64,000 nucleotides of DNA from Candidatus Doudnabacteria bacterium (GTDB lineage: Bacteria > Patescibacteriota > Doudnabacteria > UBA920). The notes below the pieces were generated by a model, which saw nothing but the letters and a program-made list of their open reading frames with translations, did not search any database and was not told the origin of the DNA. The translations under genes were made by a program, and so were the position numbers. Shown here piece after piece: positions 5,798-63,684 of the stretch (within the stretch, counting starts at the first letter, position 1; every line of letters starts with the position of its first letter). The DNA lies in assembly GCA_003151625.1 (NCBI GenBank), contig PLYC01000007.1, positions 2,929 to 66,928 of the forward strand, in the 5' to 3' direction.

Positions 5798-5820
5798 TGA
5801 TTGATTAAACAAGGAATGCC

Positions 5821-8036: not shown

Positions 8037-8305
8037 TTATTTTACTTGTTTTAGTTTTTGGCGCGATTGTCGGAATTATTGCCTTTGCGGTTAAGGGTTC
8101 CGGTTATGGGTTGTGGTGGGACATAATGCTGGGGATTGTCGGGTCTATTATTGCGAGTTTCGTTATGACAGCCGCTTACATTTTAAACCGTTTTGGCAGG
8201 GCAGATGTTATAGGGTTTAATTGGTACAGTATGGTTATTGGGACAATTGGCGCTCTTACGGTAATTTACGGCGCTTGGCTTTATAATAGAGCAAATTTAA
8301 TATAA
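8033..8305 (+). CDS. GlsB/YeaQ/YmgE-family transglycosylase-associated small membrane protein
   Basis: ATGA overlap with the upstream gene. GIVGSIIASFVM ... GFNWYSMVIGTIGA pattern. Confidence 0.6.
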   Translation: MIILLVLVFGAIVGIIAFAVKGSGYGLWWDIMLGIVGSIIASFVMTAAYILNRFGRADVIGFNWYSMVIGTIGALTVIYGAWLYNRANLI

Positions 8306-8306
8306 A

Positions 8307-8396
8307 TAGGACTTACGCACTTGGTCAAGCCCTTGTGGTTTGAGGCAACAATATATAGAGTTTCTATCATTTTTGCCTCAAACGCGTAAGTCCTAA
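8307..8396. repeat. Internally deleted copy of the GGACTTACGCG-TIR MITE
   Basis: taggacttacgc ... gtttgaggcaa...ttgcctcaaacgcgtaagtccta. Retains the 3' hairpin module of the full copies. Confidence 0.6.
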
Positions 8397-8450
8397 TAAA
8401 AATAATTTTTAAACGGTTTAATTATACGATTAAACCTAAAAAGGAGATAT

Positions 8451-10604: not shown

Positions 10605-10694
10605 AAATAGTCCTTTCAATTTTCTACTAAATACTAAATTTGGTGATTGCCACGTTTAGTATTTTTAGTCACTTTAGTATTTAGTAGAGGGTTG

Positions 10695-10985
10695 TTATTT
10701 TTTTTCTTTGCCGCTCTGGGCGGATTTCCTCAAGTTATTAAAGAAACTGGCAAAATATTTTAAGTTCGTTCCTTTTTCCCTGACGTTTTCCCTAAGATCG
10801 GACAAATCTTTGGCAATAAAATCTGCCTCATTTTTTGCTTTTCCGGAAATGTACTTTATGTCACTGGAAATTTTTATAATATAAATTGCCAGCACGGCCA
10901 AAAGCGCGGTTAAAACCACAACAGCAATGCTGGTAATAAGAAAAAAAATGTCCATTTTGGCGAATTCGGTCATAGTATTGATCAA
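10695..10985 (-). CDS. DUF948-like membrane protein (N-terminal TM plus coiled coil)
   Basis: TM helix IFFLITSIAVVVLTALLAVLAIYII followed by a charged helical region. Confidence 0.4.
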   Translation of the reverse strand: MINTMTEFAKMDIFFLITSIAVVVLTALLAVLAIYIIKISSDIKYISGKAKNEADFIAKDLSDLRENVREKGTNLKYFASFFNNLRKSAQSGKEKK

Positions 10986-11078
10986 AAGATATTTGTTGAT
11001 ATTTAGGGATATTAGTAGATATTATTTTGTCACCCAATATCTATTAATATCTCAATTTCAATTAATATCTTTTTTGAA

Positions 11079-11570
11079 CTATTTATAATATTCCCTAATC
11101 TGAAACAGGAAGTACATGGAAATTACAACATTAAAAATCAAATTAATAAAACTTCCATCAATCAACTGGCCAACCGCGCTTACTAAAACCGCGTAATAAA
11201 CCAAATGCCAGCTTTTAAGGCTTCGTTTAAAAAGTCCCGGCAAAGCCACGGCTTCCATAATAAAAGCAATTAGGCCAATTAAGGCTCCAAGCAAATAAGT
11301 TATCTGGTTGCCATAACCGCCATACATTTTAGCCACCGGGCTAAAAACCGCGCTAAGTCCAATGGCCGCCAACATTGCTAGAGCGCCAAAAATCATTAAG
11401 ACTAAGGTTATCCAGGGCCCGAATTTTACAATCCATTCTTTAGCGACTGGGGGCAGATGGAAGGGGACTTTTTTGTGGAGATAGGTATCAAAAAAGTCTT
11501 CCATTTGCTTTAAAAAACCATGGGGTTGCGGGGCGACTATAGGGTTTTGATTTGGTTGTTGTGTGTCCAT
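11079..11570 (-). CDS. Hypothetical polytopic membrane protein
   Basis: 163 aa with four predicted TM segments. No recognisable motif. Confidence 0.45.
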   Translation of the reverse strand: MDTQQPNQNPIVAPQPHGFLKQMEDFFDTYLHKKVPFHLPPVAKEWIVKFGPWITLVLMIFGALAMLAAIGLSAVFSPVAKMYGGYGNQITYLLGALIGLIAFIMEAVALPGLFKRSLKSWHLVYYAVLVSAVGQLIDGSFINLIFNVVISMYFLFQIREYYK

Positions 11571-11625
11571 ATATTTGTTTGAGTATTAGCGATATTTACA
11601 AATATCAGCCAATATCTTAATTACT

Positions 11626-11799
11626 TAGGACTTACGCGCTTGGCCGAGTATGAGGCATTTTGTGAGGATTTTTGGAGGCGTAGTTTGACTACGTCGGCAA
11701 AAACCGCAGCAAAATAACGAAGTAATCGGCCAAGCCCCTGCGGTTTGAGGCAACAAGATATAATTTTTGTTCATTTTTGCCTCAAACGCGTAAGTCCTA
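11626..11799. repeat. Full-length (approx 175 nt) MITE with TIR TAGGACTTACGCG
   Basis: Termini taggacttacgcg / cgcgtaagtccta. Internal hairpins cttggccga/tcggccaag, cgtagtttgactacg, gtttgaggcaa/ttgcctcaaac. Near-identical inverted copy at 20600-20774. Confidence 0.7.
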
Positions 11800-11834
11800 T
11801 GTCTGTTAATTTAATTTCTAATATTTATATTATA

Positions 11835-12404
11835 TCACGTTTTTCCATACTTACTAAATAATTCCTCCAAAATGTTCTGGTAGCTTTGGCGGATATTTTG
11901 GTCGCGTCCGACCTCCAAAACTTCATCGTTAATGTTGGTAGCCGCCGTTGTCCAGTTGTAAGACCCGCTGGCGTAAGCTTTTTCCGTAACCAGAGCCTTC
12001 ATGTGCATAATGCCCGAGTGATCCTGCTCATAGACAGGTATGCCGTCGTCGCGCAGAGCGTCTATTATTTGTTTTTGCCCGGGAGCTTGGTTGTATTGGT
12101 CGCGATCGGTAATGCCCACTACGGTCAGGCCGCGGTACTTGGCCGCAATTAAAGCCTGTTCTATATCCTGCCTGGTAAAAGTGTAAACCGCGAAGTAAAC
12201 AAATTTATCCGCGTCCCGGATTTGATTAATAATTTCATCGTTCAACGCGTGATCCTGATTGTAGTAAACGCTGATTTCATGCGTTGGCAAGTAGCGGTAA
12301 GAATAGTAAAATTGTCCACAAAGCGCGATGAGTGAAATAATAACAATCAAATAAACTATGTCTTTTTTGTTTTTCATATTTGTGTCAGGAAATTGTGAAA
12401 TCAA
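11835..12404 (-). CDS. Phospholipase D-family (Nuc-like) protein with N-terminal TM
   Basis: HMKALVTEKAYASGSYNWTTAA = HxK(x4)D/E(x6)GS.N PLD/Nuc signature. Confidence 0.5.
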   Translation of the reverse strand: MISQFPDTNMKNKKDIVYLIVIISLIALCGQFYYSYRYLPTHEISVYYNQDHALNDEIINQIRDADKFVYFAVYTFTRQDIEQALIAAKYRGLTVVGITDRDQYNQAPGQKQIIDALRDDGIPVYEQDHSGIMHMKALVTEKAYASGSYNWTTAATNINDEVLEVGRDQNIRQSYQNILEELFSKYGKT

Positions 12405-12439
12405 GAAATTAGGAAATTGGGGAGCGTGTCCCCAATACC

Positions 12440-12874
12440 TTAATATCCCAATTTCTTAATTTCCTTTTTAATTTCTCTTTTTTGTATATACTCTCGTTTA
12501 TCTGCCTTTTTTCTCGCTTTGCCTAAGCCTATCCTCATTTTTATCAATCCGCGATTACCCAAAAAAATATCCAGGGGAATTACTACCAACCCTTTTTCTT
12601 TTCCGAGCAATTTGTTTATTTCCGATTTGTTTAAAAGAAGTTGTCGGGTTTGGGTCGGCTGGTATTTTTCATCGGGCGCGTACTTGTAAGGCCCAATATG
12701 GCAATTAATTAAACTGGCCCCCCTGGCCGACACGGTTACATAAGCCCCGGCCAAAGAAACATTGCCGCCTTTAACGGATTTTACTTCTGCCCCGCTCAAT
12801 ACCAAACCGGCAGTAAAGTTTTCTTTAATATCGTAATCAAACCTTGCTCTCTTATTGTCCGCAAAAATTTTCAT
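12440..12874 (-). CDS. smpB: SsrA-binding protein SmpB
   Basis: NKRARFDYDIKENFTAGLVLSGAEVKS...GNVSLAGAY, with a Lys/Arg-rich C-tail typical of SmpB. Confidence 0.9.
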   Translation of the reverse strand: MKIFADNKRARFDYDIKENFTAGLVLSGAEVKSVKGGNVSLAGAYVTVSARGASLINCHIGPYKYAPDEKYQPTQTRQLLLNKSEINKLLGKEKGLVVIPLDIFLGNRGLIKMRIGLGKARKKADKREYIQKREIKKEIKKLGY

Positions 12875-12950
12875 ATCCGGTGTTTAATCTAATATATATT
12901 GTACCACCATTTATACTCTTGTCTATAAGCAAATTTTGACTTAAAATATA

Positions 12951-12988
12951 AGTGGAGAAAATTCTCGGCCGAGAAAATCATCCACTTA
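12951..12988. repeat. Palindromic hairpin of the AAGTGGA..TTC.CGGCCG.GAA..TCCACTT family
   Basis: aagtggagaaaattctcggccgagaaaatcatccactt. A near-identical hairpin at 13811-13848 brackets the leader element plus paaX-like gene. Confidence 0.5.
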
Positions 12989-12991
12989 TTA

Positions 12992-13257
12992 GCGACGTAG
13001 AGCGAGAGAAATGATATGCAGCATATCATTTCCGAGCCGACCTATTCAACTCCGCTCAAGGCCCCGAGTGCAGATCGAGGGGGAGCTTCCGCCAAAGGCG
13101 GATCCTCCTCCCTTCGAGGGTCTGAGGACCCCTCAGGGTCTCGAACGACCGGCGGAAATACAGGTTCAATACTTCGTCCCGCCGACGGCGGAACTGCGAA
13201 GTGCAGGCAGTTCATTGCACTAATACCTCGCAGCTCTGCGGATAGCGAACCTTTATT
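12992..13257 (+). promoter_or_regulatory. Conserved structured leader element, copy 3, carrying a nested approx 110-nt GC-rich multi-hairpin insertion
   Basis: GCGACGTAGAGCGAGA, then hairpin gaaatgatatgcagcatatcatttc, then CGAGCCGACC ... AATACAGGTTCAATACTTCG ... GCACTAATACCTCG ... GCGAACCTTTATT. The first 86 codons of predicted ORF 13016..13795 are translation of this element. Confidence 0.5.
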
Positions 13258-13273
13258 AAATAAGCAACATTTT

Positions 13274-13795
13274 ATGCTGGAAGATTACAATCTTGCTGAC
13301 TCCATTTTGGCCTTTTTTTCCGAGACGCTGAATTTATTGCCGAGGCCTTTGGAAATGCCTTACCAATGGGTTAAACGTAACAAAGGGATGAATTATAGGA
13401 GTTACTACGATTCCGTGCAGGGCTTAAAGCGTCGCGGGGCGGTAAAATTGACAAAAAAGCGGGATAAAACATTCATCCAGTTAACGGAAAAAGGTTTATT
13501 GGATGTTTTACTGCTGAAAGCGGGCGTGAGCAGAGAAAGGGTCTGGGATGGGAAGTGGAGAGTGTGTATTTTTGACATTCCGGAAGAAGCTCACTTACAG
13601 CGGGACTATTTTCGCCGCCTGCTTAAGCAGTACGGTTTTTATAAATTGCAGGCCAGTGTTTTTGTGCACCCGTTTACATTGAACCGAGAGGCAATAGCAT
13701 ACTTAAGTAAAACAGGTCTGAATAAATATATTCGTTTTTTAAAAGTTGAAGAAATGGACAATGATGAGGATTTAAAGAAGTTTTTTAACCTATGA
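13274..13795 (+). CDS. PaaX-like (PaaX C-terminal domain) putative transcriptional regulator
   Basis: RERVWDGKWRVCIFDIPEEAHLQRDYFRRLLKQYGFYKLQASVFVHPF matches the PaaX_C consensus. Start reassigned to in-frame ATG at 13274. Confidence 0.5.
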   Translation: MLEDYNLADSILAFFSETLNLLPRPLEMPYQWVKRNKGMNYRSYYDSVQGLKRRGAVKLTKKRDKTFIQLTEKGLLDVLLLKAGVSRERVWDGKWRVCIFDIPEEAHLQRDYFRRLLKQYGFYKLQASVFVHPFTLNREAIAYLSKTGLNKYIRFLKVEEMDNDEDLKKFFNL

Positions 13796-13810
13796 ATGAA
13801 TAGATAGAAA

Positions 13811-13848
13811 AGTGGATAAATTTCACGGCCGTGAAATTTACCCACTTC
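13811..13848. terminator. Palindromic hairpin (same family as 12951 and 37763) acting as terminator
   Basis: agtggataaatttcacggccgtgaaatttacccact. Confidence 0.5.
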
Positions 13849-13936
13849 GTAATTTTTTTAAAATCCGGTATTTTGGAATTTTTAGATTTTTGATTTTGGT
13901 GAAACAAACGATTTTGTGTTATAATGCAGGTATTAT

Positions 13937-15706
13937 ATGCCAAGTGAAACATCTAAAAATTTTATAAACCACCTTTTGTCATCGGCTTTGTCCGGGCTCA
14001 AGCTGACTTCCTATTTGGACGTTTTAGATATTACGCCCCCATCCAATCCTGATTTTGGCGATTATTCCAGCAATGCGGCTTTAATTTTGTCAAAAAAACT
14101 AAAAATTAACCCTAAAGAAATCGCCGGGAAAATTGTTGACGCCATAAATAATATAGATTTAGAAGGCAAACTGGAATCGGTTACCGAACAGGGCGGGTTT
14201 ATTAACTTTAAACTTTCACAAAAATTTTTGCTTAATAATCTTGGTACTATAATTGACCAACGGGACTTGTACGGATGTTCGGTGTTGGGTGAAGGGAAAA
14301 CTGTAGTTGTCGAGTATTTCCAAAATAACGTAGCTAAGCCGCCTCACGTAGGGCACCTGCGTTCGTCCGTAATTGGCGATTGTCTTTTAAGAGTTTTTAA
14401 ATCGCAAGGCTACAAAACTATTTCCGATACTCACATTGGTGACTGGGGCGTCCAGTTCGGCATTTTGCTTTACGCGTTTAAGACAATGAAGCCGGATATG
14501 GAAGTTTTGGAAAAAGACCCGATTAACGAGTTAAATAAACTTTATGTAGCCATGTCCGCAAAAATAGAAGCCCAAGCCGAGCTTCGGGATTTAGCCAAAG
14601 CGGAATTTAAGAAGCTGGAAGACGGAGATGAGCAGAACCGCAAACTCTGGCAGTTGTTTGTGGACGAATCCTTAAAAGATTTTGAACGCTACCGGATTTT
14701 GCTTGGAGTCTTGCCATTTGATTATAATTTGGGAGAAAGTTTTTACGAAAAACATATGCCGGAAGTTTTGGCGGAATTTCAGGAAAAGAAACTTATAACA
14801 AAAGGCGAAACAGGGGAGCTTTATATTGATTTGGAAAGCTTCGGTCTTGGCCGCTGTATTTTGGTAAAAAGCGACGGAGCGACCACTTACCATTTGCGGG
14901 ATTTTGCCACTTACCTTTACCGACGCAAACAGTTTAATTTTTTAAAAAATCTGTACATTGTAGACAATCGTCAGTCGCACCATTTTAAACAGCTATTTAA
15001 GTCGCTCGAACTTGCAGGCTATCCGGCCGAAAAAGACAGTACCCATATTGATTTGGGATTTATGAGTTTGCCCGAAGGTGCTATTTCCACGCGCAAAGGC
15101 ACAACAATTAGTCTGGAGAATTTAATTACCGAGGCCAACAAGCGCGCTTTAAAAATTATTGAAGACAAGAATCCGGATTTGGAAAATAAAGAAGCGGTCT
15201 CTAAGCAAGTCGCGCTGGCGGCCATAAAATATTTTGATTTATCACATAATCGTAAAACAGAAATAATCTTTACTTGGGACAACGCTTTGTCGTTTGAGGG
15301 CAATACAGGGCCGTATTTGCAGTACACGCACGCGAGAATTCATGGAATATTGCGTAAATCGCGGAATAATACGGAACTTAACGCGGAAAATGCGGAACGT
15401 GGTTTTCCGCGCCTTTCCGCGTCAGATTCCGCGTCTTTCCGCGACACCGAACTCTCCGTTCTTCGCAAACTCATCCAATTCCCCGAAGTCGTTACCCAAG
15501 TCTCCCAGGACTATTTCCCCAACAACCTCTGTAATTATTTATTTGAACTTTCCCAAACCGTTAACTCTTTTTATCAGGAAGTTCCCGTCCTAGCCGAAAC
15601 CGACGAAACCCTAAAATCCTTCCGCCTAAATTTAATTACCGCCACCGCGCAAGTTATAAAAAATGGGCTTTATCTGTTGGGAATAGAAGCGCCGGAGGAA
15701 ATGTGA
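13937..15706 (+). CDS. argS: Arginyl-tRNA synthetase
   Basis: PHVGHLRS (HIGH-class motif), ArgRS N-terminal domain, DALR anticodon-binding C-terminal with YTHARIHGILRK. Contains the in-frame repeat insertion at 15358-15443. Confidence 0.9.
   Translation: MPSETSKNFINHLLSSALSGLKLTSYLDVLDITPPSNPDFGDYSSNAALILSKKLKINPKEIAGKIVDAINNIDLEGKLESVTEQGGFINFKLSQKFLLNNLGTIIDQRDLYGCSVLGEGKTVVVEYFQNNVAKPPHVGHLRSSVIGDCLLRVFKSQGYKTISDTHIGDWGVQFGILLYAFKTMKPDMEVLEKDPINELNKLYVAMSAKIEAQAELRDLAKAEFKKLEDGDEQNRKLWQLFVDESLKDFERYRILLGVLPFDYNLGESFYEKHMPEVLAEFQEKKLITKGETGELYIDLESFGLGRCILVKSDGATTYHLRDFATYLYRRKQFNFLKNLYIVDNRQSHHFKQLFKSLELAGYPAEKDSTHIDLGFMSLPEGAISTRKGTTISLENLITEANKRALKIIEDKNPDLENKEAVSKQVALAAIKYFDLSHNRKTEIIFTWDNALSFEGNTGPYLQYTHARIHGILRKSRNNTELNAENAERGFPRLSASDSASFRDTELSVLRKLIQFPEVVTQVSQDYFPNNLCNYLFELSQTVNSFYQEVPVLAETDETLKSFRLNLITATAQVIKNGLYLLGIEAPEEM
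15358..15443. repeat. In-frame palindromic CGCGGA-repeat insertion inside argS
   Basis: cgcggaataatacggaacttaacgcggaaaatgcggaacg followed by four TTCCGCG units (ttttccgcgcctttccgcgtcagattccgcgtctttccgcg). The first 40 nt are approx 88% identical to a segment of ileS (17486-17527). Encodes SRNNTELNAENAERGFPRLSASDSASFRD between conserved ArgRS blocks. Confidence 0.6.
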
Positions 15707-15787
15707 AGCCGCTGATTGGTCGCTGATTAGTACGCTGAAGGTCGTAGCCCATCGATTTATCGGCCTGAAGAATTAAATGTAAGAATT

Positions 15788-16489
15788 ATGACTGGAGAAA
15801 TTCAAAAAAGGCCACAGCCTGATCGCCAAGATATTGTCGAGGCGAAAGATAATGTTGAAGTATTGAAAGCGGATTTTGTTCATCTTTGCCGTTCTTTAGA
15901 AAGTTTGGTTGCTGAATTGAAGCAGCGGGGTTCGGAAGGAGAAAAATTGGCTAGGGGATTATTTTTAGAACAGACTTTAACAGACTTGCAACGTCCAGAA
16001 AACGAAAGAGGTTTTGATGCAGATTTTAGTGCCGTAGAGAGAAATACAGATATCACAGCCCCTGATTTTATCTCACGTTGGCTATTTGGGTATTCTGGTG
16101 CAATTAATAATTTAGGTAAAGCCTACCTTCGGGTAAAAACTTTTTATAAAGAAGATTCAAGTTTTTCTGATTTTATTACAAATTTTGAGAATTTTATCAC
16201 AAGCGTCAATAAAAACAATACCAAATGCAAAATTTCACCTCTGCCCGAGTTATTGGCGCCAATGGACGAAGAGAGGTTTGAGTTAAATGATAATTCTGTA
16301 GAGCAAGCGTACGCATCGGTCCCAAAAATAAGACAAGAGGTCGGAATAAAATTGACAGAACATTCTAAAATAGAATCAGAAAATGTATATCTGATTATTG
16401 ACCTAGCGGCTATGCCATTGAATGAAACTGGATTCAAATCACAGAAAGCAAAAGTTAAAATAGCATCGCCTGCTCAATGGGAAAATTAA
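15788..16489 (+). CDS. Hypothetical protein
   Basis: 233-aa ORF between argS and ileS. No recognisable domain. Confidence 0.45.
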   Translation: MTGEIQKRPQPDRQDIVEAKDNVEVLKADFVHLCRSLESLVAELKQRGSEGEKLARGLFLEQTLTDLQRPENERGFDADFSAVERNTDITAPDFISRWLFGYSGAINNLGKAYLRVKTFYKEDSSFSDFITNFENFITSVNKNNTKCKISPLPELLAPMDEERFELNDNSVEQAYASVPKIRQEVGIKLTEHSKIESENVYLIIDLAAMPLNETGFKSQKAKVKIASPAQWEN

Positions 16490-16513
16490 TAAAGTAACGC
16501 TTAAATTTATTTT

Positions 16514-19500
16514 ATGACGGAAGAAAAACCGCAAACATCATCAACCCCCAATTTTAATAACCTGGAAAAGGGAGTTTTACAGTTTTGGGATGAGAATAAA
16601 ATTTTTGAAAAGTCTTTGGAACAGACCAAGGACAATGAGCCTTACATTTTTTATGATGGGCCGCCTTTTGCCACGGGACTGCCGCATTATGGCCATATTT
16701 TGGGGTCTACGGTTAAAGATTCCTTTGGCCGCTATTATACGATGAAAGGCCGGTTCGTCCGGCGCGTTTGGGGCTGGGATTGCCACGGTTTGCCCATAGA
16801 AAATATTGTTGAACAGCAGTTAAAAATTTCCGGAAAAAAACAAATAGAGGAACTCGGCGTGGATAAGTTTAACCAGGCTTGCCGGGAAAATGTTTTAAGG
16901 TTCGTGGATGAATGGGGAAAAATGGTCAAGCGCATGGGGCGCTGGGTGAACTTTGACAATTCCTATAAAACCATGGACACCACCTATATGGAGAGCGTGT
17001 GGTGGTCTCTCCAGCAGATTTGGAACAAGGGATTAATTTACGAAGACCGCAAAGTTTTGCTTTACTGCTCGCGCTGTGAAACTCCAATTTCCAATTTTGA
17101 AGTGGCAATGGACAACAGCTACCGTGACGTGACCGAGGAATCGGTTTACGCTAAATTCAAAATGCCCAAGGGCCAGAGAATTATTAACGACCTGACCAAC
17201 GATAAGACTTTTGTCTTAGCCTGGACAACTACGCCATGGACCTTGCCCGGCAATACATCGCTGAACGTCGGAGCGGATATAGTTTATGTAATGATCGAGA
17301 TGGAAAATGGCCCTGCCCGCCAGTCGCCTGACGGCTCCAGCCGGATGGCAGGCGGGGAAAGATATATTTTGGCCAAGGAACGATTGTCTGTAATAGATGG
17401 TTCTTACGAGACTGTCGCCGAATTTCCGGGCAGGGCAATTGCCGGGCTGGAATATGAACCGTTATATCCCGGCGTTATCCCTTCATCGCGGAATAATGCG
17501 GAATTTAACGCAGAAGGACGCGGAAGTAATCATCCTGAATTTGTGGGTGATCCCGCCAAATCGCATCACATTTATATTGCCGACTTTGTTACCACCACCG
17601 ACGGAACCGGGGTTGTTCACAATGCGGCCATGTATGGAGAAGAAGACTATCAACTGGCCAAAGAAAAAGATTTGCCTCGAATGGATATGCTTGACCACAA
17701 GGGCCGCTATTTGGAATATTTGCCGGAGAGTTTGCGCGGCGTATTTTTTAAAGACGCGGAAAAAATAGTGCTTAAGGAATTGGCGGCCAAAAATTTGGTT
17801 TATAAGACCGAACATTATACTCACAGCTACCCGCACTGCTATCGATGCGCTACTCCGCTGTTTTATAACGCGCTGCCGGCCTGGTTTATTAATATACAAA
17901 AAATAAAATCCCAACTGCGCAAACTAAACTCCGAAGAAATAAATTGGCAGCCGGAACATCTAAAAATGGGGCGTTTTGATAAAAGCATAGAGTCCGCGCC
18001 GGATTGGAATATTTCCAGAAACAGGTTTTGGGCTACGCCATTGCCGTTTTGGAAATGCGGAAACGATGAATGTAAAAATGTAATTTGTGTCGGATCAGTT
18101 GATGAATTAAAGGAAAAATCAAATAACTTTGGCCAGGTTTACCCAAATTTTAATTCGGAAAATCTGCAGATGACCGATTTGCATCGCCCTTACATAGACC
18201 AAGTGGTCGTAACCTGTCCGAAGTGCGCGGATAATATGAAGCGCGTGCCTGAAGTTGTGGACTGCTGGGTGGAAAGCGGTAGTATGCCGTTTGCCGAGTT
18301 GCATTATCCGTTTGCAAACCAGGAATTATTTAAGAAACGTTTTCCGGCCGATTTTGTGGCCGAATATATTGGCCAAGTCAGGGCTTGGTATTATGTTATG
18401 CTTGTGGTCTCCACAATTGCTTTTGAACACGCCCCGTTTAAAAATATTGTTACAACAGGAAATATTTTGGCGGAAGACGGCAGTAAAATGTCCAAGAGCA
18501 AAAATAATTATCCTGACCCGTGGATTTTAATAGAAAAATATGGAATAGACGCATTGAGGTTTTATCTTTTAACCAGCCCGGTTATGAATGCCGATGATGT
18601 AAATTTTTCCGAAAAAGGCGTGCAGGAAATCGGCCGCAAGGTAAATATGCTGGTTTACAATGTCTGGAGCTTTTTGCGCCTTTATACCAAAGATAAATTC
18701 AGCGGCGAACTTCCGGTATCGGAAAATATTTTAGACAGATGGATTATTTCCCGGCTTAGCCAAGTCCACAAACAAGTCACGGGATTTTTGGATGTTTATG
18801 ACACCGTGCGCGCCGGCAAAGCCATGACTGCTTTTATAGACGAACTTTCTACCTGGTATTTGCGCCGCAGCCGCGACCGCATAAAAAATAACGACGAGGC
18901 CGCGAAAATCGCGTTGGCTACTTTGGCCTATGTTTTAATAGAACTTTCCAAAATGTTGGCGCCGTTTATGCCATTTTTGGCGGAGTTTATTTATCGCGAT
19001 CTCACTGGCCAAGAATCTGTACATTTAACATTGTGGACAGTAGAAATTGCCGGCGATAACGAAGTCGTCCGCCAAAAAATGGCTTTTGTTAAAGATTTGG
19101 TGGAAAGCGGCCTTTCTTTGCGTAAAGAAGCCGGCTTTAAAGTTCGCCAGCCCCTGGCCGAGGTTGAATATCATATTAAGAATAAAGATCTCGTGCTGGA
19201 CGCGGATTTTGAAAAACTTTTGGCCGATGAGCTCAACGTTAAATTAATAAGCAACCGTCAGGATTTTGTGGCCAAAGGCGGCTGGGCGTACAAGGACACC
19301 CCGGGTTTTAAACTTCAAATTAACCTGGAATTAAGCGAGGATCTAAGGCAGGAAGGTTTGGCTAGGGAAATCGAGCGCCAAATTCAGGACTTAAGAAAAA
19401 AGAGCGGCCTTAGAGTGGGAGAACTGGTGGATGTTTATTACAATACCCAGGACGAGAAACTAGAGGAAGCTTTGCTGAAATTGGTAGATCGCAAAAAAAC

Positions 19501-19603
19501 TTTTGTCAGCCAAATCAGCAAAAGCCTGGAAGTGGAAGTGGATTTTGAAATTCAAAGCCAGATTGAAGGCAAAACTGTTTGGTTGGGGATGATAAAAATA
19601 TAG
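16514..19603 (+). CDS. ileS: Isoleucyl-tRNA synthetase
   Basis: HYGHILG (HIGH), GSKMSKSKNN (KMSKS), CP1 editing region, 1029 aa. Confidence 0.95.
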   Translation: MTEEKPQTSSTPNFNNLEKGVLQFWDENKIFEKSLEQTKDNEPYIFYDGPPFATGLPHYGHILGSTVKDSFGRYYTMKGRFVRRVWGWDCHGLPIENIVEQQLKISGKKQIEELGVDKFNQACRENVLRFVDEWGKMVKRMGRWVNFDNSYKTMDTTYMESVWWSLQQIWNKGLIYEDRKVLLYCSRCETPISNFEVAMDNSYRDVTEESVYAKFKMPKGQRIINDLTNDKTFVLAWTTTPWTLPGNTSLNVGADIVYVMIEMENGPARQSPDGSSRMAGGERYILAKERLSVIDGSYETVAEFPGRAIAGLEYEPLYPGVIPSSRNNAEFNAEGRGSNHPEFVGDPAKSHHIYIADFVTTTDGTGVVHNAAMYGEEDYQLAKEKDLPRMDMLDHKGRYLEYLPESLRGVFFKDAEKIVLKELAAKNLVYKTEHYTHSYPHCYRCATPLFYNALPAWFINIQKIKSQLRKLNSEEINWQPEHLKMGRFDKSIESAPDWNISRNRFWATPLPFWKCGNDECKNVICVGSVDELKEKSNNFGQVYPNFNSENLQMTDLHRPYIDQVVVTCPKCADNMKRVPEVVDCWVESGSMPFAELHYPFANQELFKKRFPADFVAEYIGQVRAWYYVMLVVSTIAFEHAPFKNIVTTGNILAEDGSKMSKSKNNYPDPWILIEKYGIDALRFYLLTSPVMNADDVNFSEKGVQEIGRKVNMLVYNVWSFLRLYTKDKFSGELPVSENILDRWIISRLSQVHKQVTGFLDVYDTVRAGKAMTAFIDELSTWYLRRSRDRIKNNDEAAKIALATLAYVLIELSKMLAPFMPFLAEFIYRDLTGQESVHLTLWTVEIAGDNEVVRQKMAFVKDLVESGLSLRKEAGFKVRQPLAEVEYHIKNKDLVLDADFEKLLADELNVKLISNRQDFVAKGGWAYKDTPGFKLQINLELSEDLRQEGLAREIERQIQDLRKKSGLRVGELVDVYYNTQDEKLEEALLKLVDRKKTFVSQISKSLEVEVDFEIQSQIEGKTVWLGMIKI
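17486..17527. repeat. In-frame copy of the argS CGCGGA-repeat segment inside ileS
   Basis: tcgcggaataatgcggaatttaacgcagaaggacgcggaag versus argS tcgcggaataatacggaacttaacgcggaaaatgcggaacg. Encodes SRNNAEFNAEGRGS. Right arm is degenerate. Confidence 0.55.
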
Positions 19604-19840: not shown

Positions 19841-20593
19841 ATGGATAATGAAATCGATTCGATTATTCCCGAAGACGGCCTAAAGAACCAGCCCCAGGTT
19901 AAGCCAGCCGAGCCAAAAAAAGCTGTTGCCCCAAAGACTATAAAGCCTGTTAAACCCTTGGTTGAAGGCATAAATTCGCCAAAAAATACCCAGGACGTAA
20001 TTTTGGTAAAGAATAATTTAAGCCAAAAAGAAAAAGATCTGCTCACTGAATCACCGTCCTCAAATCAAAGCGCAAACAAGCCGGAACCCAGGCTTATGCC
20101 CGAATCGGTTTCTTTTTCAATAAATAAAAAGAGCCATCATATTGGCAGATGGCTGTTAATTTTTGTGGTGTTATTAATTTTAGTGGCCAGCGGCTATGAG
20201 TTTTATGTTTGGAAGTTGCAGAACGGACAAACTCCAATTGTGGGGCATTATCATCCCGCTGTGCAGGCAACAGAACCATTTCCGTTAGCAGGTGGAACCG
20301 TGCCAACATCTACCTTAATTACGGCAATATCCAGTTCGACACCTTTGGGGATTGCATCCACAACCCCAACATCGACTCCTCCAGCCGAGCCGGTTTTACA
20401 GGTTAAAATATCATCCACGCCCACCGGATTTTTAAACGTTAGAAGCACGCCTTCGCCCTCGGGTAAAGTTGTAACCCAGGTTCACCCCGGAGAGATTTAC
20501 ACTTACACCAAAACACAAAGCGGCTGGTATGAAATAACCTATAGCGGGCTAAATCAAGGATGGGTTAGCGGGCAGTATGTGGTTAAACAATAA
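19841..20593 (+). CDS. Membrane-anchored protein with C-terminal bacterial SH3 (SH3b) domain
   Basis: Central TM (WLLIFVVLLILVASGY), STPT linker, and C-terminal GFLNVRSTPSPSGKVVTQVHPGEIYTY...GWYEITYSGLNQGWVSGQYV = SH3_3 pattern. Confidence 0.55.
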   Translation: MDNEIDSIIPEDGLKNQPQVKPAEPKKAVAPKTIKPVKPLVEGINSPKNTQDVILVKNNLSQKEKDLLTESPSSNQSANKPEPRLMPESVSFSINKKSHHIGRWLLIFVVLLILVASGYEFYVWKLQNGQTPIVGHYHPAVQATEPFPLAGGTVPTSTLITAISSSTPLGIASTTPTSTPPAEPVLQVKISSTPTGFLNVRSTPSPSGKVVTQVHPGEIYTYTKTQSGWYEITYSGLNQGWVSGQYVVKQ

Positions 20594-20599
20594 CAAGAT

Positions 20600-20774
20600 T
20601 AGGACTTACGCGTTTGAGGCAAAAATGAACAAAAATTATATCTTGTTGCCTCAAACCACAGGGGGCTTGGCCGATTACTTCGTTATTTTGCTGCGGTTTT
20701 TGTCGACGTAGTCAAACTACGTCTCCAAAAATCCTCGCAAAATGCCTCGTACTCGGCCAATCGCGTAAGTCCTA
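20600..20774. repeat. Full-length MITE copy, inverted relative to 11626-11799
   Basis: Near-exact reverse complement of the 11626 element including all three internal hairpins. Confidence 0.7.
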
Positions 20775-20786
20775 AGATTATAAATT

Positions 20787-32598: not shown

Positions 32599-32625
32599 AA
32601 CTTAAGCAATACTTTTAACTATTTC

Positions 32626-32656: not shown

Positions 32657-32701
32657 CATTATAAACAAAATAAATAAAATTTAATCTTAAAAAATAAAAT
32701 T

Positions 32702-34183: not shown

Positions 34184-34198
34184 AACAGCTAGTTGTTT

Positions 34199-60466: not shown

Positions 60467-62626
60467 ATGGATCTCTCCTCACTTAACGACAAACAAAAAC
60501 AGGCTGTAACCGCGCCGTTCGGGCCGGTGTTGGTTTTGGCCGGGCCCGGCAGCGGCAAGACCAAGACTTTGACCCACCGCATTGCCTATATTATAGAGAA
60601 GCGGCTGGTCAAACCCGAGAACATTTTGGCCTTGACCTTTACCAACAAGGCGGCCAAGGAAATGAGGAGCCGGGTTGCAAACCTTTTGGCCAGGCATGTA
60701 GGCGCGTCGGAAAGCCTGACTATGGGCACCTTCCATTCGGTTTGCGCCAAAATTTTGCGCCATGAAATTACCGCTTTGGGCTATGCTTCGGATTTTGTGA
60801 TTTTTGATAAAGACGACCAGCAAAAAGTCTTGCGGGAAATTTTGGAAGATTTAAGGATAGACAGTAAAAAAATGCCGCCGGCTTTGTTTGGCGCTTTAAT
60901 TTCGCGCGGCAAAAATTTGTTACAGTTGCCGGCTGATTTAAATTTGGGACTGGAGTCGCCCATGCGCGAAAAATTGGCCGAGGTCTACACCCGTTATCAG
61001 GATGCGCTGTATAGGCAAAACGCCCTGGATTTTGACGACCTGCTTTTGCTGACCGTTAAAATTTTTGAGAATTTCTCCAAAGTTTTGGCAAAGTATCAAA
61101 AAAAATTTAGTTACGTGCTGGTGGATGAATACCAGGATACAAACCAGGTGCAATACCGATTGCTATCTTTACTGGCCACGCATCATAATATTTTTGTCGT
61201 GGGCGACGACGCCCAGAGCATTTATAAGTTCCGCGGCAGTGACATTACCAACATTTTGAATTTTGAAAAAGATTACCCGGAAGGCCTGGCGATTAAGCTG
61301 GAACAAAATTATCGGAGTACCAAAAATATTTTGGAAGCCGCCCAGAAAGTTATTGAAATGAATCCCGAGCAAAAGCCAAAAGTCCTGTGGACGGAAAATG
61401 TCCAGGGAGAGAAAATTATTTTAACCTGCGAGGAGGACGAGCGAGCCGAGGCCGAGTTTGTGGCGCGAAATATTGTGAAATTGGCCGTTGTAGGGGCGGG
61501 TTTGAAACCCGCCCGTACCGAGGACTTGGAATATGCCGATGACGATTCTCAAGCCGAACCCAAACCGTTTTCTATACTTGATAGGTTTATTAAGGCAAAA
61601 ATGATGCAGGCCCAATATTCCCAATCTTTTGGCCGGACTTTGGTGCCACAGCTTCCCAAGAAGCACGAAAGCCTCAAGGAGTTCTGCATTTTGTACCGCA
61701 CCCACGCGCAGTCCCGCGCGCTTGAAGAAGTTATGATAGAAGCGTCCATACCGTATCAGATTGTCGGCGGATTAAAATTTTACGAACGCAAAGAAATCAA
61801 GGACATTTTGGCTTACTTGAGATTAACTTTAAATTATCGCGATTTAGTATCGCTTCGGAGGGTCATCAATGAACCGCCGCGCGGTATTGGCGACAAGTCG
61901 TATGCCGAAATCCGTGACTTTATTTTAAATTTGGGTGGCAGGGACAAGGAATTGCTTTTTAAAGATTTCCGGATTGCCTTTGCCGAAATTAAAATCCAGC
62001 CAAAAGCCTGGGCATCTTCCCAGGAGTTTTTTAGGATGATCGAGGAGTTTTCCGATTTTAACGAAAAATTTTCCTTGCCGGAGCTGGTCAAGTTAATTCT
62101 GCGAAAGACCGGTTACGAAAAGTATTTGCGCGACGGCTCGGAGGCGGGGGAATCCCGTTGGGAAAATGCCGAGGAGCTTATTAACGTGGCTCATAAGTTT
62201 GGAAATTTGGGATGGCGCGAGGCTTTGCAGGAGTTTTTGGAAGAAGTCGCGCTGATTTCGGAAATAGACCAAAAAGACGAAAGCAAAGACGCGGTAACTT
62301 TAATGACTCTGCATTCGGCTAAAGGTTTGGAGTTTGATAACGTATTCTTTGTCGGTTTGGAAGAAGGAATTTTGCCTCACTCCAGAAGCTTAATAGACCC
62401 GGCGGAGCTTAGCGAGGAAGTCCGCCTGGCTTATGTCGGGCTGACCCGCGCGCGCAAACGGCTGTTTTTAGTATATACCCACAACCGCCGCGGGTTCGGC
62501 AATGTGCAAATTAACCAACCCTCGCGAATTTTAAAAGTTTTGCCCAAAGGAGTGGTGGAATACCGCGGCATGGCTAAGGAACATTTTAAAAACGTTGACG
62601 AAGAAGTGACTTATGAATTAACTTAA
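60467..62626 (+). CDS. uvrD: ATP-dependent DNA helicase UvrD/PcrA
   Basis: Walker A AGPGSGKT. TFTNKAAKEM. DEYQDTN. All SF1 motifs through VGLTRAR. An extra approx 60-aa insertion with hairpin sits at 61486-61690. Confidence 0.9.
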   Translation: MDLSSLNDKQKQAVTAPFGPVLVLAGPGSGKTKTLTHRIAYIIEKRLVKPENILALTFTNKAAKEMRSRVANLLARHVGASESLTMGTFHSVCAKILRHEITALGYASDFVIFDKDDQQKVLREILEDLRIDSKKMPPALFGALISRGKNLLQLPADLNLGLESPMREKLAEVYTRYQDALYRQNALDFDDLLLLTVKIFENFSKVLAKYQKKFSYVLVDEYQDTNQVQYRLLSLLATHHNIFVVGDDAQSIYKFRGSDITNILNFEKDYPEGLAIKLEQNYRSTKNILEAAQKVIEMNPEQKPKVLWTENVQGEKIILTCEEDERAEAEFVARNIVKLAVVGAGLKPARTEDLEYADDDSQAEPKPFSILDRFIKAKMMQAQYSQSFGRTLVPQLPKKHESLKEFCILYRTHAQSRALEEVMIEASIPYQIVGGLKFYERKEIKDILAYLRLTLNYRDLVSLRRVINEPPRGIGDKSYAEIRDFILNLGGRDKELLFKDFRIAFAEIKIQPKAWASSQEFFRMIEEFSDFNEKFSLPELVKLILRKTGYEKYLRDGSEAGESRWENAEELINVAHKFGNLGWREALQEFLEEVALISEIDQKDESKDAVTLMTLHSAKGLEFDNVFFVGLEEGILPHSRSLIDPAELSEEVRLAYVGLTRARKRLFLVYTHNRRGFGNVQINQPSRILKVLPKGVVEYRGMAKEHFKNVDEEVTYELT

Positions 62627-62778: not shown

Positions 62779-63684
62779 ATGGACATTGACCAGCTAAAAA
62801 AACTTTTAAGAAGCTTCAACCTAAAACCCAACTTCACTTATGGGCAGAATTTTTTGATTGATGATTTTGTTTTGCAGGACATTGTGGACGCGGCGGAAGT
62901 CAGTAAAGATGATGCTGTTTTGGAAATCGGGCCGGGGATTGGTAGTTTAACCAGATTACTTTGCGAGCAAGCCGGTTTTGTGCTAAGTGTTGAAAAAGAT
63001 CCTAAATTTTTCCCTATTTTAAAAAGCGTTAAAAAAGACTTTCCGGAAAATTTTCGGTTTGAAATCGCCGATGCCTTAGAGTATGACTTCCAAAAAACGC
63101 TGATCTCACGCGGATCTAAAACTGCAACCGCGGATATAAACGCGGATCCGCGTTCCGATCTGCGTAGCGGATCCGCGACCAAATCCGCGGGATACAAGGT
63201 TGTTGCCAACATCCCGTACTTTATTACCGGCAAGATTCTTAAAATGCTGATGACGGCAAAAAACAAACCGACGTCCATAACAATCTTAACGCAAAAAGAA
63301 GTAGCAAGGAATATTTCCGCCAAAGCGGGGGACTTAAGCATTTTGGCAATTTCCGTTCAGCTGTTTGGGAAACCGAAAATTATTCAAACGGTTTTAGCCA
63401 AAAATTTTTACCCGGCGCCAAAAGTTGACAGCGCGATTGTAAAGATTGATTTGTTTAAGAAACCAAAATATATTTTGGCTGATGAAAAAATTTTTTTTAA
63501 AATTGTTAAAGCATGCTTTTCGGGCAAGCGGAAACAAATTCATAATACCCTGGTAAATAATTTGGGATTGGAAAAAAATTCGGTTTTGGAAATTTTATCC
63601 TCGCTAAAAATAAAACCCGAGGCACGACCCCAGGAGTTATCGATTCAGGAATGGATTGAGCTAACAGATAAAATTTTCAATTAA
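62779..63684 (+). CDS. rsmA: 16S rRNA (adenine1518/1519-N6)-dimethyltransferase
   Basis: GQNFLID, LEIGPGIGSLT, VVANIPYFIT. Has an in-frame repeat insertion at 63108-63192. Confidence 0.85.
   Translation: MDIDQLKKLLRSFNLKPNFTYGQNFLIDDFVLQDIVDAAEVSKDDAVLEIGPGIGSLTRLLCEQAGFVLSVEKDPKFFPILKSVKKDFPENFRFEIADALEYDFQKTLISRGSKTATADINADPRSDLRSGSATKSAGYKVVANIPYFITGKILKMLMTAKNKPTSITILTQKEVARNISAKAGDLSILAISVQLFGKPKIIQTVLAKNFYPAPKVDSAIVKIDLFKKPKYILADEKIFFKIVKACFSGKRKQIHNTLVNNLGLEKNSVLEILSSLKIKPEARPQELSIQEWIELTDKIFN
63108..63192. repeat. In-frame CGCGGAT-repeat palindromic insertion inside rsmA/ksgA
   Basis: cgcggatctaaaactgcaaccgcggatataaacgcggatccgcgttccgatctgcgtagcggatccgcgaccaaatccgcggg. Encodes SKTATADINADPRSDLRSGSATKSAG ahead of the conserved NIPY motif. 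Confidence 0.5.

Follow-up and report, generated by a model that had tools for sequence, protein, structure and literature searches.

Rickettsia palindromic elements (RPEs) are found in intergenic regions as well as inside genes, where they are inserted in frame without disrupting their host, and they add to the variability of spacers (PMC1950309); their size is about 105-146 nt (PMC3184786). Some copies of MITE-like repeats are also fused in frame to genes, either internally or at gene ends (PMC3184786; PMC5896051), and REP sequences are described as 20-40 nt long with a GTAG or CGTC head (PMC3733652). Protein-coding palindromes have so far been treated largely as a rickettsial curiosity.

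With respect to the window, i.e. the whole 64,000-nt stretch of Candidatus Doudnabacteria DNA analysed here, the segments shared by its argS and ileS genes are probably copies of one dispersed, non-coding palindromic family in Doudnabacteria-like CPR bacteria, which would behave as selfish DNA in a manner similar to the RPEs; it is this explanation as a whole that is considered likely. The family satisfies the RPE criteria of a many-copy palindrome of about 100-150 nt (if a somewhat short one, with 86 nt in argS and 79-144 nt in 24 others), of intergenic in addition to in-frame genic copies and of permissive sites, and it shares with the RPEs the shortness of the repeat, the reduced genome of the host and the contribution to spacer variability. 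To our knowledge no transposase is known for RPEs, and none is known for the present family either. It differs from them, however, in its host (Patescibacteria/CPR instead of Rickettsiales), in being shorter (~80-120 nt), in arms composed of four iterated 6-7-nt units about one helical turn apart, in the existence of free-standing half arrays, in a strict stop-to-start position with an orientation bias, and in that one and the same loop is taken by several unrelated palindrome families which are swapped between near-identical alleles. Given a host outside the Rickettsiales and the lack of a sequence comparison with RPEs, the family is to be regarded as analogous to them and not as a member.

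MITEs such as pneumococcal BOX, RUP and SPRITE, the Coxiella MITEs and Correia/NEMIS are likewise small, multi-copy, hairpin-forming and non-coding, and the family agrees with MITEs insofar as each arm repeats the other in inverted orientation, in an element of ~80-145 nt without coding capacity. However, here the entire element is an inverted repeat, whereas MITEs have terminal repeats around a core, and neither a target-site duplication in the flanks of 24 copies nor a related full-length insertion sequence within the 1-15 kb around copies was found. Common to the family and to the REP, BIME and REPIN sequences of RAYT Y1 transposases are palindromes frequently arranged in inverted pairs and folding into hairpins, a location between co-directional genes, the absence of target duplications and strand asymmetry, but neither GTAG nor CGTC is conserved as a head in the family consensus, as judged by reading the alignment, and REPs are extragenic by definition whereas this family also resides inside genes. 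Iteron-type arrays, finally, are protein-binding sites, e.g. the 11-bp repeats of plasmid partition and replication loci. They resemble the present arrays in that a short motif is repeated directly at intervals of about one helical turn, in some cases as two inverted sets, but the latter are dispersed in dozens of copies per genome, in operons and coding sequences, and are not tied to a replication or partition locus. The behaviour as such is already known from Rickettsia; as far as could be found it has not been described for the CPR group, and the literature yielded no report of in-frame palindromic repeats in CPR bacteria.

The copies in argS and ileS

Table 1. Elements, host genes and compared sites, in nucleotide positions of the window
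Feature	Position	Strand	Evidence or remark
argS (arginyl-tRNA synthetase), host gene	13937..15706	+	589-aa uninterrupted ORF
Segment of argS replaced in strain L167/P0241 by an unrelated 162-nt palindromic cassette	15349..15450	+	near-identical outside
Complete element (palindrome of the short-loop subtype) in the argS reading frame	15359..15444	+	encodes SRNNTELNAENAERGFPRLSASDSASFR
Left arm of the argS element	15359-15398	+	unit starts 15360, 15371, 15382, 15392
Right arm of the argS element	15405-15444	+	TTCCGCG at 15405, 15415, 15427, 15437
ileS (isoleucyl-tRNA synthetase), host gene	16514..19603	+	1029-aa uninterrupted ORF
Half element in frame in the ileS CP1 editing-domain loop	17486..17525	+	encodes SRNNAEFNAEGRGS
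Unoccupied uvrD site (ARHVGASES)	60689..60715	+	comparison with L133 and L153
ksgA/rsmA (16S rRNA dimethyladenosine transferase), third host gene	62779..63684	+	Pfam RrnaAD, E 1e-45
In-frame palindrome of ksgA, related to the family and built of CGCGGAT units	63098..63189	+	insert peptide TLISRGSKTATADINADPRSDLRSGSATKSAG

The two synthetase genes were assigned by the domains of their homologs (PF03485, PF00750 and PF05746 for ArgRS, PF00133 and PF08264 for IleRS), and the argS product matches the E. coli ArgRS structure 4oby with an E-value of 5e-88. Their copies are 2.1 kb apart and share both strand and reading frame. The 30-mer TCGCGGAATAATRCGGAAYTTAACGCRGAA has exactly two sites in the window, at 15359-15388 and 17486-17515 (0.00 expected from 100 shuffles), and the first 30 nt of the argS and ileS copies are identical at 27 positions. 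Over ~41 nt there are ~33-34 matches with one 1-nt indel, which comes close to the ~35 of 40 nt given in the initial annotation, and 8 of the 18 CGCGGAA/TTCCGCG heptamers of the window fall in these two spots.

The further claim that the argS segment continues with four TTCCGCG units and can form a hairpin is borne out: the palindrome comprises 86 nt, with four CGCGGAA-type units, a 6-nt loop and four TTCCGCG units, and it folds as DNA with -29.2 kcal/mol (z -4.1), albeit imperfectly, positions 15359-15389 and 15414-15444 being 77% complementary. That the same palindromic repeat is present in both genes, in turn, holds true for the family but not for the palindrome, since the ileS copy is a half element consisting of the left arm alone, with four direct CGCGGAA-type units at 17487, 17498, 17509 and 17519, and is not hairpin-capable (z -0.6 and -1.4). 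Both copies are in frame, as had been proposed, and conserved protein blocks can be aligned on either side of them.

Comparison with orthologs, which had been suggested as a check, places both sites in loops that are, by alignment, poorly conserved and variable in length. Amongst 120 ArgRS homologs the loop has 18-70 aa, and four further homologs have loops just as long as that of the window (31 aa) and of similar composition. The IleRS loop measures 12-13 aa in 74 of 121 sequences (the query and 120 homologs) and 34 aa in the window. The originally stated gain of 15-25 residues depends on the reference: in ArgRS it amounts to +11 aa when compared to E. coli and +8 aa when compared to the median of the 120 homologs, and in IleRS to +8 aa over the closest relatives or ~21-25 aa over the minimal form. 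When set against solved structures, the segments of IleRS and KsgA lie between aligned blocks, and that of ArgRS corresponds to the loop that is shorter in E. coli. Structural modelling had been proposed for the host proteins in general and was done for ArgRS only, where the insert (residues 481-500) is predicted by AlphaFold to be disordered, with a pLDDT of 51-60 against a model mean of 89, between the confidently predicted helices 458-477 and 503-512.

Dispersed copies and their positions

A search pattern derived from the two window copies and run against metagenome loci retrieved 40 loci, about one of which would be expected by chance according to our own estimate. Several copies can be found per contig; the maximum, six element sites, is reached within 9 kb of an operon for ribosomal proteins. 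Conversely, a family profile built from the metagenome copies without the window sequences recovered argS (15354-15445, E 3.4e-23), ileS (17480-17556, E 4.4e-12; 17486-17525, E 5e-11 with a profile of the left arm) and, weakly, ksgA (63090-63191, E 0.016), without any further hit in the window, so that by this search no intergenic copy of the argS/ileS family is present there.

End-to-end alignment of 18 full copies reveals conserved units, with variable spacers and loop. A complete element of ~80-120 nt (79-144 nt in 24 other copies) has the ends (T)CGCTGAA and TTCCGCG(A) and consists of four units of 6-7 nt (CGCTGAA followed by GCGGAA/CGCGGAA) that begin at intervals of 9-12 nt, the variable loop, and the four units inverted; half elements made up of a single four-unit array also exist. 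With ~40 nt per arm the stem forms four helices with internal loops, and compensatory covariation is lacking (1 of 30 pairs). Two known classes of structure were considered and rejected: an intrinsic terminator, given the ~40-nt four-helix arms followed by 3-8 mixed A/T bases and an ATG (as judged by reading the sequence), and a known structured RNA of Rfam, the element reaching only 10-23 bits in generic hairpin matches compared to gathering scores of 44-95. Only two tRNAs reach the Rfam threshold in the window.

Most full copies occupy the stop-to-start spacer of co-directional genes in a single orientation. An ATG is located 3-8 nt from the CGCTGAA end in 17 of 25 distinct full copies and at the other end in 2, and in at least 11 copies a distance of 3-8 nt separates the upstream stop codon from that other end. 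In-frame copies of the family reside in ArgRS, IleRS, KsgA, UvrD and an HD protein, and in-frame CGCGGAW-unit arrays in TopA, RecG, UvrB and TatD of other Patescibacteria. A length divisible by three, proposed as a check on every copy, is not a property of the intergenic copies, which can leave any residue when divided by three and mostly show 0-1 open frames on a given strand; the genic copies are open.

The ksgA element, which the initial annotation did not cover, folds as a DNA palindrome with z -4.8, and matches to KsgA structures in the PDB are split around residues 106-139. On the syntenic contig L133 the site is occupied by a CGCGGAA-type copy, in place of the CGCGGAT units of the window. 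The same contig carries an 87-nt family copy at the uvrD site that is empty in the window, and in L153 a copy follows the same conserved uvrD motif.

Other unit-iterated palindromes likewise occupy stop-to-start spacers in the window, and one recF spacer is occupied by one palindrome family in one genome and by another in a related genome. In the host organism Shine-Dalgarno signals do not rise above background, and the mRNA strand tends toward the weaker hairpin of the element. A transposase was seen near a copy only where the L001 locus ends, in the form of an IS66-type gene.

Turnover and proposed explanation

Three comparisons provide evidence for recent turnover. The argS segment is exchanged in P0241/L167 for a different palindromic cassette of 49 aa, the ArgRS sequences being ~98% identical outside the loop; the array is absent from the ileS of the close relative L003, which is 97.7% identical over the next 300 nt downstream and differs from the window ileS in the 60-nt segment 17486-17545; and uvrD is empty in the window and filled in L133. 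Direct observations are the membership in a family, the number of copies, their contexts, their location in loops, and such presence/absence or cassette replacement between near-identical alleles; "insertion" is inferred from the latter two, and transposition itself has not been demonstrated. Mobility in the strict sense remains unproven because the 24 pairs of flanks show no target-site duplication, no pair of copies encloses a transposase gene or gene-sized segment in loci comprising only 1-15 kb around each copy, and no copy was found on viral contigs.

According to the proposed explanation, copies of the element would be kept only where little harm is done. Permissive sites of this kind might be, first, the few nucleotides between a stop codon and the next start codon, in one preferred orientation, and second, protein surface loops, provided that the copy keeps the frame and is free of stop codons. 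The argS copy, a full element, constitutes the entire loop that separates helices one and two of the anticodon-binding domain, and the ileS copy, a half element, sits in its editing-domain loop, both putatively translated as unstructured loop peptides, although translation is inferred from the open frame only. They may have come in as insertions, or an earlier loop cassette may have been replaced through recombination, and conserved units together with variable spacers suggest a protein recognising the units; both of these are inferences. Given that the window lacks intergenic copies, the family may be extinct in its genome and the genic copies might be relics. The RPE-like behaviour put forward by the initial annotation is supported by the multi-copy family, its intergenic and in-frame genic copies, the variable-loop sites and the close relatives without the element.

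A more far-reaching and only tentative hypothesis, which we would not yet rely on, assumes a lineage with a whole system of unit-iterated palindromic cassettes, comprising many families of one architecture in operon spacers and in surface loops of essential enzymes and exchanged between near-identical strains. If true, such cassettes would be a main source of lineage-specific insertions in CPR proteins and would imply an undescribed recognition or mobilisation machinery reading 6-7-nt units one helical turn apart, which the CGCGGAW arrays present in many other phyla could share. The CPR case, where more families and turnover at the strain level are seen in aminoacyl-tRNA synthetases, enzymes of DNA repair and a 16S rRNA methyltransferase, suggests that protein-coding palindromes are what hairpin repeats generally lead to when a genome is very compact. 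Some of the insertions in CPR proteins that have lacked an explanation may thereby be given a concrete origin. The case also serves as a warning that phylogenetic signal must not be read from such loops and that such elements break or chimerise assemblies and inflate families of "hypothetical peptides". The strict stop-element-start geometry without Shine-Dalgarno signals turns translation start behind a 40-bp stem into a testable question, and the elements are potential strain markers.

Alternative readings

The strict rule of position and orientation in spacers could also mean that the elements are functional and not purely selfish. They might be cis-acting RNA or DNA signals held at fixed positions by selection, either as intercistronic hairpins for translational coupling or mRNA processing and stability or as arrays of regulator binding sites, the genic copies being by-products or acting in the mRNA; this is compatible with a selfish origin. 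In favour of this scenario are the very regular succession of stop codon, 3-8 nt, element, 3-8 nt and ATG with an orientation of 17 to 2, the similar placement of other unit-iterated palindromes in the window, the recF spacer, filled as if a hairpin were needed there, and the conservation of units but not of spacers. In addition, start-site selection may rely on local structure where Shine-Dalgarno signals do not exceed background, and the weaker hairpin tends to be on the mRNA strand. However, close relatives manage without the element in the orthologous genes, intergenic copies are missing from the window altogether, stem covariation is restricted to the single pair mentioned, no Rfam family is matched, and it is hard to picture regulation inside the protein loops of nine different enzymes. 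A regulatory role is possible but doubtful.

Since the two copies are close together, in the same strand and frame, and without another strong copy in the window, they might also go back to a purely local event, i.e. duplication or gene conversion between argS and ileS, or de novo formation of a palindrome via slippage and template switching, without any dispersed family. This is very improbable in view of the 40 loci elsewhere with the same units, spacers and ends, the L133 copies in uvrD and ksgA, and the recovery of both window copies by a profile made without them.

As a refutation of the RPE-like reading, the initial annotation had named orthologs from unrelated lineages with the same peptide at the same position, and formally this condition is triggered, by the ArgRS of L001 (62% identical) and the IleRS of L004 (71% identical). 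Together with the four further ArgRS homologs with 31-aa loops of similar composition, they might indicate an ancestral, protein-level loop feature under selection, the likeness of argS and ileS being convergence or coincidence. The shared peptide is nevertheless judged not to refute the RPE-like reading, because closer relatives lack the element, because the argS element of the window and L001 is 92% identical overall and 90% at third codon positions, in contrast to 66-75% and 44-52%, respectively, in the flanks, and because the same DNA sits in many non-homologous contexts, including non-coding spacers and unrelated proteins. Moreover, a nearly identical ArgRS allele carries an unrelated cassette, the loop is predicted to be disordered, and 27 of 30 identical nucleotides between unrelated genes are not expected by chance, so that an ancestral peptide is scarcely credible. 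What does count against the preferred reading, i.e. a dispersed RPE-like family, is that the presence of the element at the same position in L001 argS and L004 ileS could reflect inheritance or allelic recombination instead of repeated insertion.

Finally, repeats can break or chimerise assemblies, and the L153 uvrD frame is indeed lost right after the element near the contig end, but an assembly or binning artefact, i.e. repeat-induced chimeric joins in a metagenome-assembled genome, deserves practically no weight, as frames and conserved blocks run on seamlessly on both sides in argS, ileS and ksgA, the argS copy recurs in independent JGI and Logan assemblies (L001, L002), and the ileS array recurs in L004 and L005.

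In-frame copies in argS, ileS and ksgA and their host loops

As had been claimed in the initial annotation, argS and ileS share a repeat, since a 30-mer, TCGCGGAATAATRCGGAAYTTAACGCRGAA, occurs once in each gene where shuffled sequences lead one to expect none, and both genes remain uninterrupted ORFs. A hairpin-capable palindrome is present only in argS, where one more unit follows the 30-mer and a loop of 6 nt separates this array from four TTCCGCG units; complementarity between the arms is 77%, and the predicted DNA fold has a free energy of -29.2 kcal/mol (z = -4.1). The ileS segment, by comparison, consists of four direct units only and does not fold into a hairpin (z = -0.6 and -1.4). Scanning the window for long imperfect palindromes within ORFs yielded three in 64 kb versus none in codon shuffles, namely the argS element, a related palindrome in ksgA and, within an ORF of doubtful status, a hairpin resembling a terminator. 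An nhmmer profile built from metagenome copies, including the argS copy of locus L001 but no window sequence, matched argS, ileS and ksgA (E = 3.4e-23, 4.4e-12 and 0.016, respectively) and no further copy in the window, so that in this stretch the family survives only inside genes. Translation of the inserts in the host proteins is inferred, and the tryptic peptides predicted from the open frame are NNTELNAENAER for ArgRS and NNAEFNAEGR for IleRS.

Positions of features in the window
Feature	Position	Strand	Remark
argS	13937-15706	+	uninterrupted ORF
ileS	16514-19603	+	uninterrupted ORF
argS element	15359-15444	+	86-nt imperfect palindrome
30-mer, argS	15359-15388
30-mer, ileS	17486-17515
Profile match, argS	15354-15445
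Profile match, ileS	17480-17556
Profile match, ksgA	63090-63191
ksgA palindrome	63128-63190 (scan match); 63098-63189 (full extent)		CGCGGAT units; host gene: Pfam RrnaAD
Second extra IleRS segment	about 17309-17353
uvrD region syntenic with L133	60467-62626
uvrD site	60689-60715		encodes ARHVGASES
Spacer palindrome	6947-7040
Spacer palindrome	10623-10688
Spacer palindrome	10984-11073
Spacer palindrome	12387-12465
Spacer palindrome	26061-26109
Spacer palindrome	60387-60460
Spacer palindrome	62631-62771		141 nt; 4 nt past uvrD stop, 7 nt ahead of ksgA ATG
Spacer palindrome	63672-63751
ORF directly upstream of argS	13016-13795		PaaX central Cas2-like domain
Inverted repeat, ~190 nt	11624-11808 and 20591-20776		~9 kb apart
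Related shorter pieces	8294-8412 and 5723-5809
41-nt palindrome	45916-45956 and 56636-56676		each just beyond a gene end
Repeat families D1-D3	49525-55852 and 32613-34236
tRNA-Gln	49480-49553		3' end is first D1-D3 copy

The host sites are permissive and hypervariable. In agreement with the proposal that the inserts fall between conserved blocks, both synthetase segments lie in loops that vary in length among 120 homologs each. The ArgRS segment follows the helix that ends in ...HGILRK and precedes the one beginning E.SVLRKL, where the anticodon-binding domain starts; its loop measures 18-70 aa (median 23; 31 in the window protein), and the E. coli enzyme (4oby) is 11 aa shorter at this site. 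An AlphaFold model of ArgRS (mean pLDDT 89.3, pTM 0.90) also places residues 481-500, with a pLDDT of 51-60, between helices 458-477 and 503-512. The IleRS segment belongs to the CP1 editing domain, where T. thermophilus (1ue0) has 1 residue vs 26 in the window protein, and the loop measures 12-13 aa in 74 of 121 sequences (the query and 120 homologs) vs 34 aa in the window. In KsgA, residues 106-139 take the place of 13 in the B. subtilis enzyme (6ifw), immediately ahead of the strand leading to the NxPY motif. Other ArgRS homologs have quite different repeat-like peptides in this loop (HPERSEGS...LRSDALPQNDA, TTPS...PPLLKEEG...GGGG, NFQFPISNFQ, SRLEVQGSSLEPSTLQLEP, QTNADSTQTNAGTEIPRQSGFPSAS), and the alternative fillings examined as DNA are strong palindromes (ArgRS of loci L006 and L167, z = -5.5 and -7.4; IleRS of L001, z = -5.3).

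Further inserts were seen in IleRS. The window protein has a second extra segment of 15 residues, GPARQSPDGSSRMAG, absent from L001; considered as a further palindrome, it showed no significant hairpin (z = -0.45) and was placed in no family. The L001 ileS gene (11496-14699 of that locus), whose product is 77% identical to that of the window, carries three further repeat-like inserts, all in frame and without counterpart in the window: SAEGGSASGGE, the 38-aa segment TTPSPFAEASGDTPPSQEGN...GGGGG, and the palindromic GRAADQGASLDQGIAKTKDAPWRS, which occupies the loop carrying the array in the window.

A dispersed family in spacers and genes

A pattern for units 2-4, CGGAAYTTAACGCRGAMN{3,5}GCGGAA, was found in 40 stretches of JGI metagenome contigs, about one chance match being expected by our own estimate. 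The matches are concentrated, many coming from few samples and several from one contig, and a ribosomal-protein operon (L150) has six element sites within 9 kb. As the metagenome copies were retrieved with a window-derived pattern, the size and diversity of the family are lower bounds and biased. In the 18 full copies that could be aligned end to end, the consensus left arm CGCTGAA-TGAT-GCGGAA-CTTAA-CGCGGAA-TAA-CGCGGAA is followed by a loop of 0-45 nt and then by TTCTGCGTAC-TTCCGCG-TTAGA-TTCCGCG-TnT-TTCCGCG-A, with conserved units and variable spacers and loop. Half elements comprising the left array only, as in ileS, account for 17 of 42 distinct copies. The family pattern found no copy on viral contigs, and the element matches no Rfam family. 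When 1.84 billion representative proteins were searched exhaustively for the 31-aa insert, no match had E <= 0.001; the short query has little power, and the 50%-identity cluster representatives apparently lack the cassette.

With respect to genomic context, the CGCTGAA end lies 3-8 nt from an ATG in 17 of the 25 distinct full copies, vs two with a start codon at the opposite end, and the gene so started reads away from the element. These downstream genes have housekeeping functions (rpiB, nusA, recF, rplI, mreC, mreD, rpmC, rpsC, rpsK, mraZ, rplO, dnaA and efp, as judged by us from N-terminal sequences). At the other end, the stop codon of the upstream gene begins 3-8 nt, mostly 4, before the element in at least 11 copies; the element therefore takes up the gap between the stop codon of one gene and the start codon of the next in the same direction.

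In-frame copies of the family are found in ArgRS (window, L001/L144), IleRS (window, L004/L005), KsgA (L133 and, as a related subfamily, the window), UvrD/PcrA (L133, L153) and an HD-domain protein (L136), and in-frame arrays of CGCGGAW units in TopA (L033), RecG (L040), UvrB (L075) and TatD (L119) of other Patescibacteria; names of metagenome ORFs and their proteins are our reading of the sequences except where supported by Pfam matches. In all clear genic copies the sense strand is the CGCTGAA-first strand, opposite to the intercistronic copies, which rests on only about four to five independent cases. Since usually none or one of the frames per orientation is open and copies between genes may have any length modulo 3, the genic copies look like filtered survivors.

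Arrays of CGCGGAW (at least three units, 10-11-nt period) were also seen in a scan of genome contigs (L007-L126), where the matches listed come from many phyla, among them Acidobacteriota, Planctomycetota, Chloroflexota, Gemmatimonadota, Proteobacteria, Verrucomicrobiota and Cyanobacteria. Among these matches, the arrays often form inverted pairs 12-140 nt apart and translate into recurrent IRVHPRKSAA- or RINADERGS-type peptides, mostly in short ORFs; some (L017, L042, L116 and L118) are ordinary coding tandem repeats. Homology of the CPR family to the arrays of other phyla could not be established, the profile matches being weak (E = 1e-7 to 1e-3) and the loci pre-selected by pattern.

Turnover between near-identical alleles

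The ArgRS protein P0241, encoded on L167, falls into the same 90% cluster as that of the window. Outside the loop the two proteins share about 98% of their residues; inside it, P0241 has a 49-aa cassette, LSTTPSATQPPLLKKEGN...GGGGVNNH, vs the 29-aa CGCGGAA-encoded loop of the window. The two argS genes hardly differ in nucleotide sequence as far as position 15348 or so of the window and again from about 15451, and the centre is unrelated (162 vs 102 nt). Likewise, the ileS gene of L003, from the same sample as L167, is 97.7% identical to that of the window (93% at third positions) over the 300 nt after the loop, and has a 36-nt segment vs the array-bearing 60-nt segment. In the syntenic locus L133, an 87-nt family copy stands at the uvrD site, vs the nine residues ARHVGASES of the window, and the CGCGGAT-type palindrome of ksgA is represented by a CGCGGAA-type one of equal length, with 50% identity vs 72-77% in the flanks. 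The dnaN-recF spacer holds a family copy in L132 and a different palindrome of ACGCYG units in L160, the RecF proteins being 87% identical. Conversely, the same element is present in argS of L001, whose product is only 62% identical to that of the window (about 85% over the C-terminal 170 aa), and the two copies share 92% of their nucleotides (third positions 90%) vs 66-75% (third positions 44-52%) in the flanks. In all these comparisons together, the cassettes behave as DNA-level units, inferred to be acquired, exchanged or carried along with neighbouring DNA through recombination, and not as slowly diverging coding sequence.

The uvrD gene of L133 (2300-4645 of that locus) has a second in-frame insert, the 35-aa SSPGISVSLRGSASDRSNLSHDKIASSPDKAPAPR, which is absent from UvrD of the window and resembles another common hairpin-repeat peptide family.

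Structure, relation to known elements and other repeats

RNAalifold on 23 copies predicts four helices formed by unit-unit pairing with internal loops between them. The paired positions are almost all invariant and compensatory covariation is essentially absent (1 of 30 pairs), so that conservation resides in the units themselves on both arms, and selection for an RNA structure is not claimed. From one unit to the next the distance between starts is 9-12 nt, close to one turn of the helix, and it is inferred that the units are recognised by a protein, be it a transposase, a recombinase or another binder, and not selected for pairing. No target-site duplication was seen in the flanks of the copies, and in the loci examined neither a parent insertion sequence nor a pair of arms around a transposase or other gene was found.

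The element is asymmetric, with CGCTGAA as outermost unit on the left vs TTCCGCG on the right and several G.U positions exclusive to the CGCTGAA-first strand. As RNA, this strand is the more stable folder of the two in 16 of 23 copies (mean difference 3.7 kcal/mol, p = 0.012), and the strand present in mRNA tends to be the weaker folder in both contexts, with only four genic copies compared. A near-perfect hairpin in a spacer might be tolerated because the foot of its stem would bring the stop codon close to the following AUG, the outer helix already being opened by the terminating ribosome; in proteins, a copy would be tolerated only where it lengthens a surface loop without a stop codon or a shift of frame. 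Both suggestions are inferred and untested. A hairpin placed between the Shine-Dalgarno site and the ATG was dropped as an explanation, because, of 63 predicted ORF starts in the window, only about 10 are preceded at -18 to -6 by a Shine-Dalgarno-like motif, which equals background (12%). The leaders are A/T-rich, and the organism seems not to depend on such pairing; its close ArgRS and IleRS homologs are assigned by their sources to Candidatus Doudnabacteria or Patescibacteria.

Set against known elements, the family shows neither the GTAG/CGTC head of REPs nor the target duplication by which MITEs are recognised. Rickettsia palindromic elements (RPEs), about 105-146 nt long, occur as palindromes both between genes and in frame within them and account for 3.2% of the genome of R. 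conorii (PMC1950309; PMC3184786), and other repeats fused in frame to ORFs have also been listed (PMC3184786). The family matches RPEs in this behaviour but differs by lineage and is therefore not an RPE. The RPE-like interpretation put forward for the argS and ileS repeats is supported by the dispersed family, the in-frame genic copies, the variable loops and the allele turnover, while the mechanism of spread is unknown. A full-text search, covering the literature only in part, found no paper tying RPE- or MITE-type repeats to CPR/Patescibacteria. Three features appear to be new: an architecture of iterated units in which half arrays also stand alone, the strict stop-element-start geometry together with its orientation bias, and the fact that several families occupy the same loops and spacers and are swapped between near-identical strains.

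Family elements can evidently be targets for other elements, as a copy upstream of a nusA-like gene (L131) has a second, unrelated hairpin, CCCCGTACCGGAAGCCAAAGGCTGACTGGTACCGGGG, nested in its right arm. In the window, spacers are filled by other iterated-unit palindromes (ACTAAAT, GATATT, GAAATT, TCGAAAT/CCGAAAT, AATTTTCAA and CGCTGAT) that share their geometry with CGCGGAA family copies elsewhere, several adjoining a stop codon on one side with a start codon 3-7 nt off on the other. Palindromes of the AATTTTCAA type would, when translated, seem to give the NFQFPISNFQ-like peptides seen in other ArgRS loops, a reading of ours that is untested.

The smpB-argS-ileS-SH3 block is flanked by the inverted repeat of ~190 nt (93-96% complementary), with which the shorter pieces have GGACTTACGCG...CGCGTAAGTCC in common. 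The gene directly upstream of argS, which encodes the Cas2-like domain (E = 2e-19, with a weak match to CRISPR_Cas2), also adjoins argS in L004 and L005. The 41-nt palindrome, AACAATGGGCACCATTG...CAATGGTGCCCATTGTT, is near-perfect. Finally, repeat families D1-D3 have ...GTTCGAAC/GTTCCAAC...AAGGCCAGCCA in common; copies other than that in tRNA-Gln follow short ORFs and are not called as tRNAs, and may be remnants resembling tRNA 3' ends or conserved gene ends.
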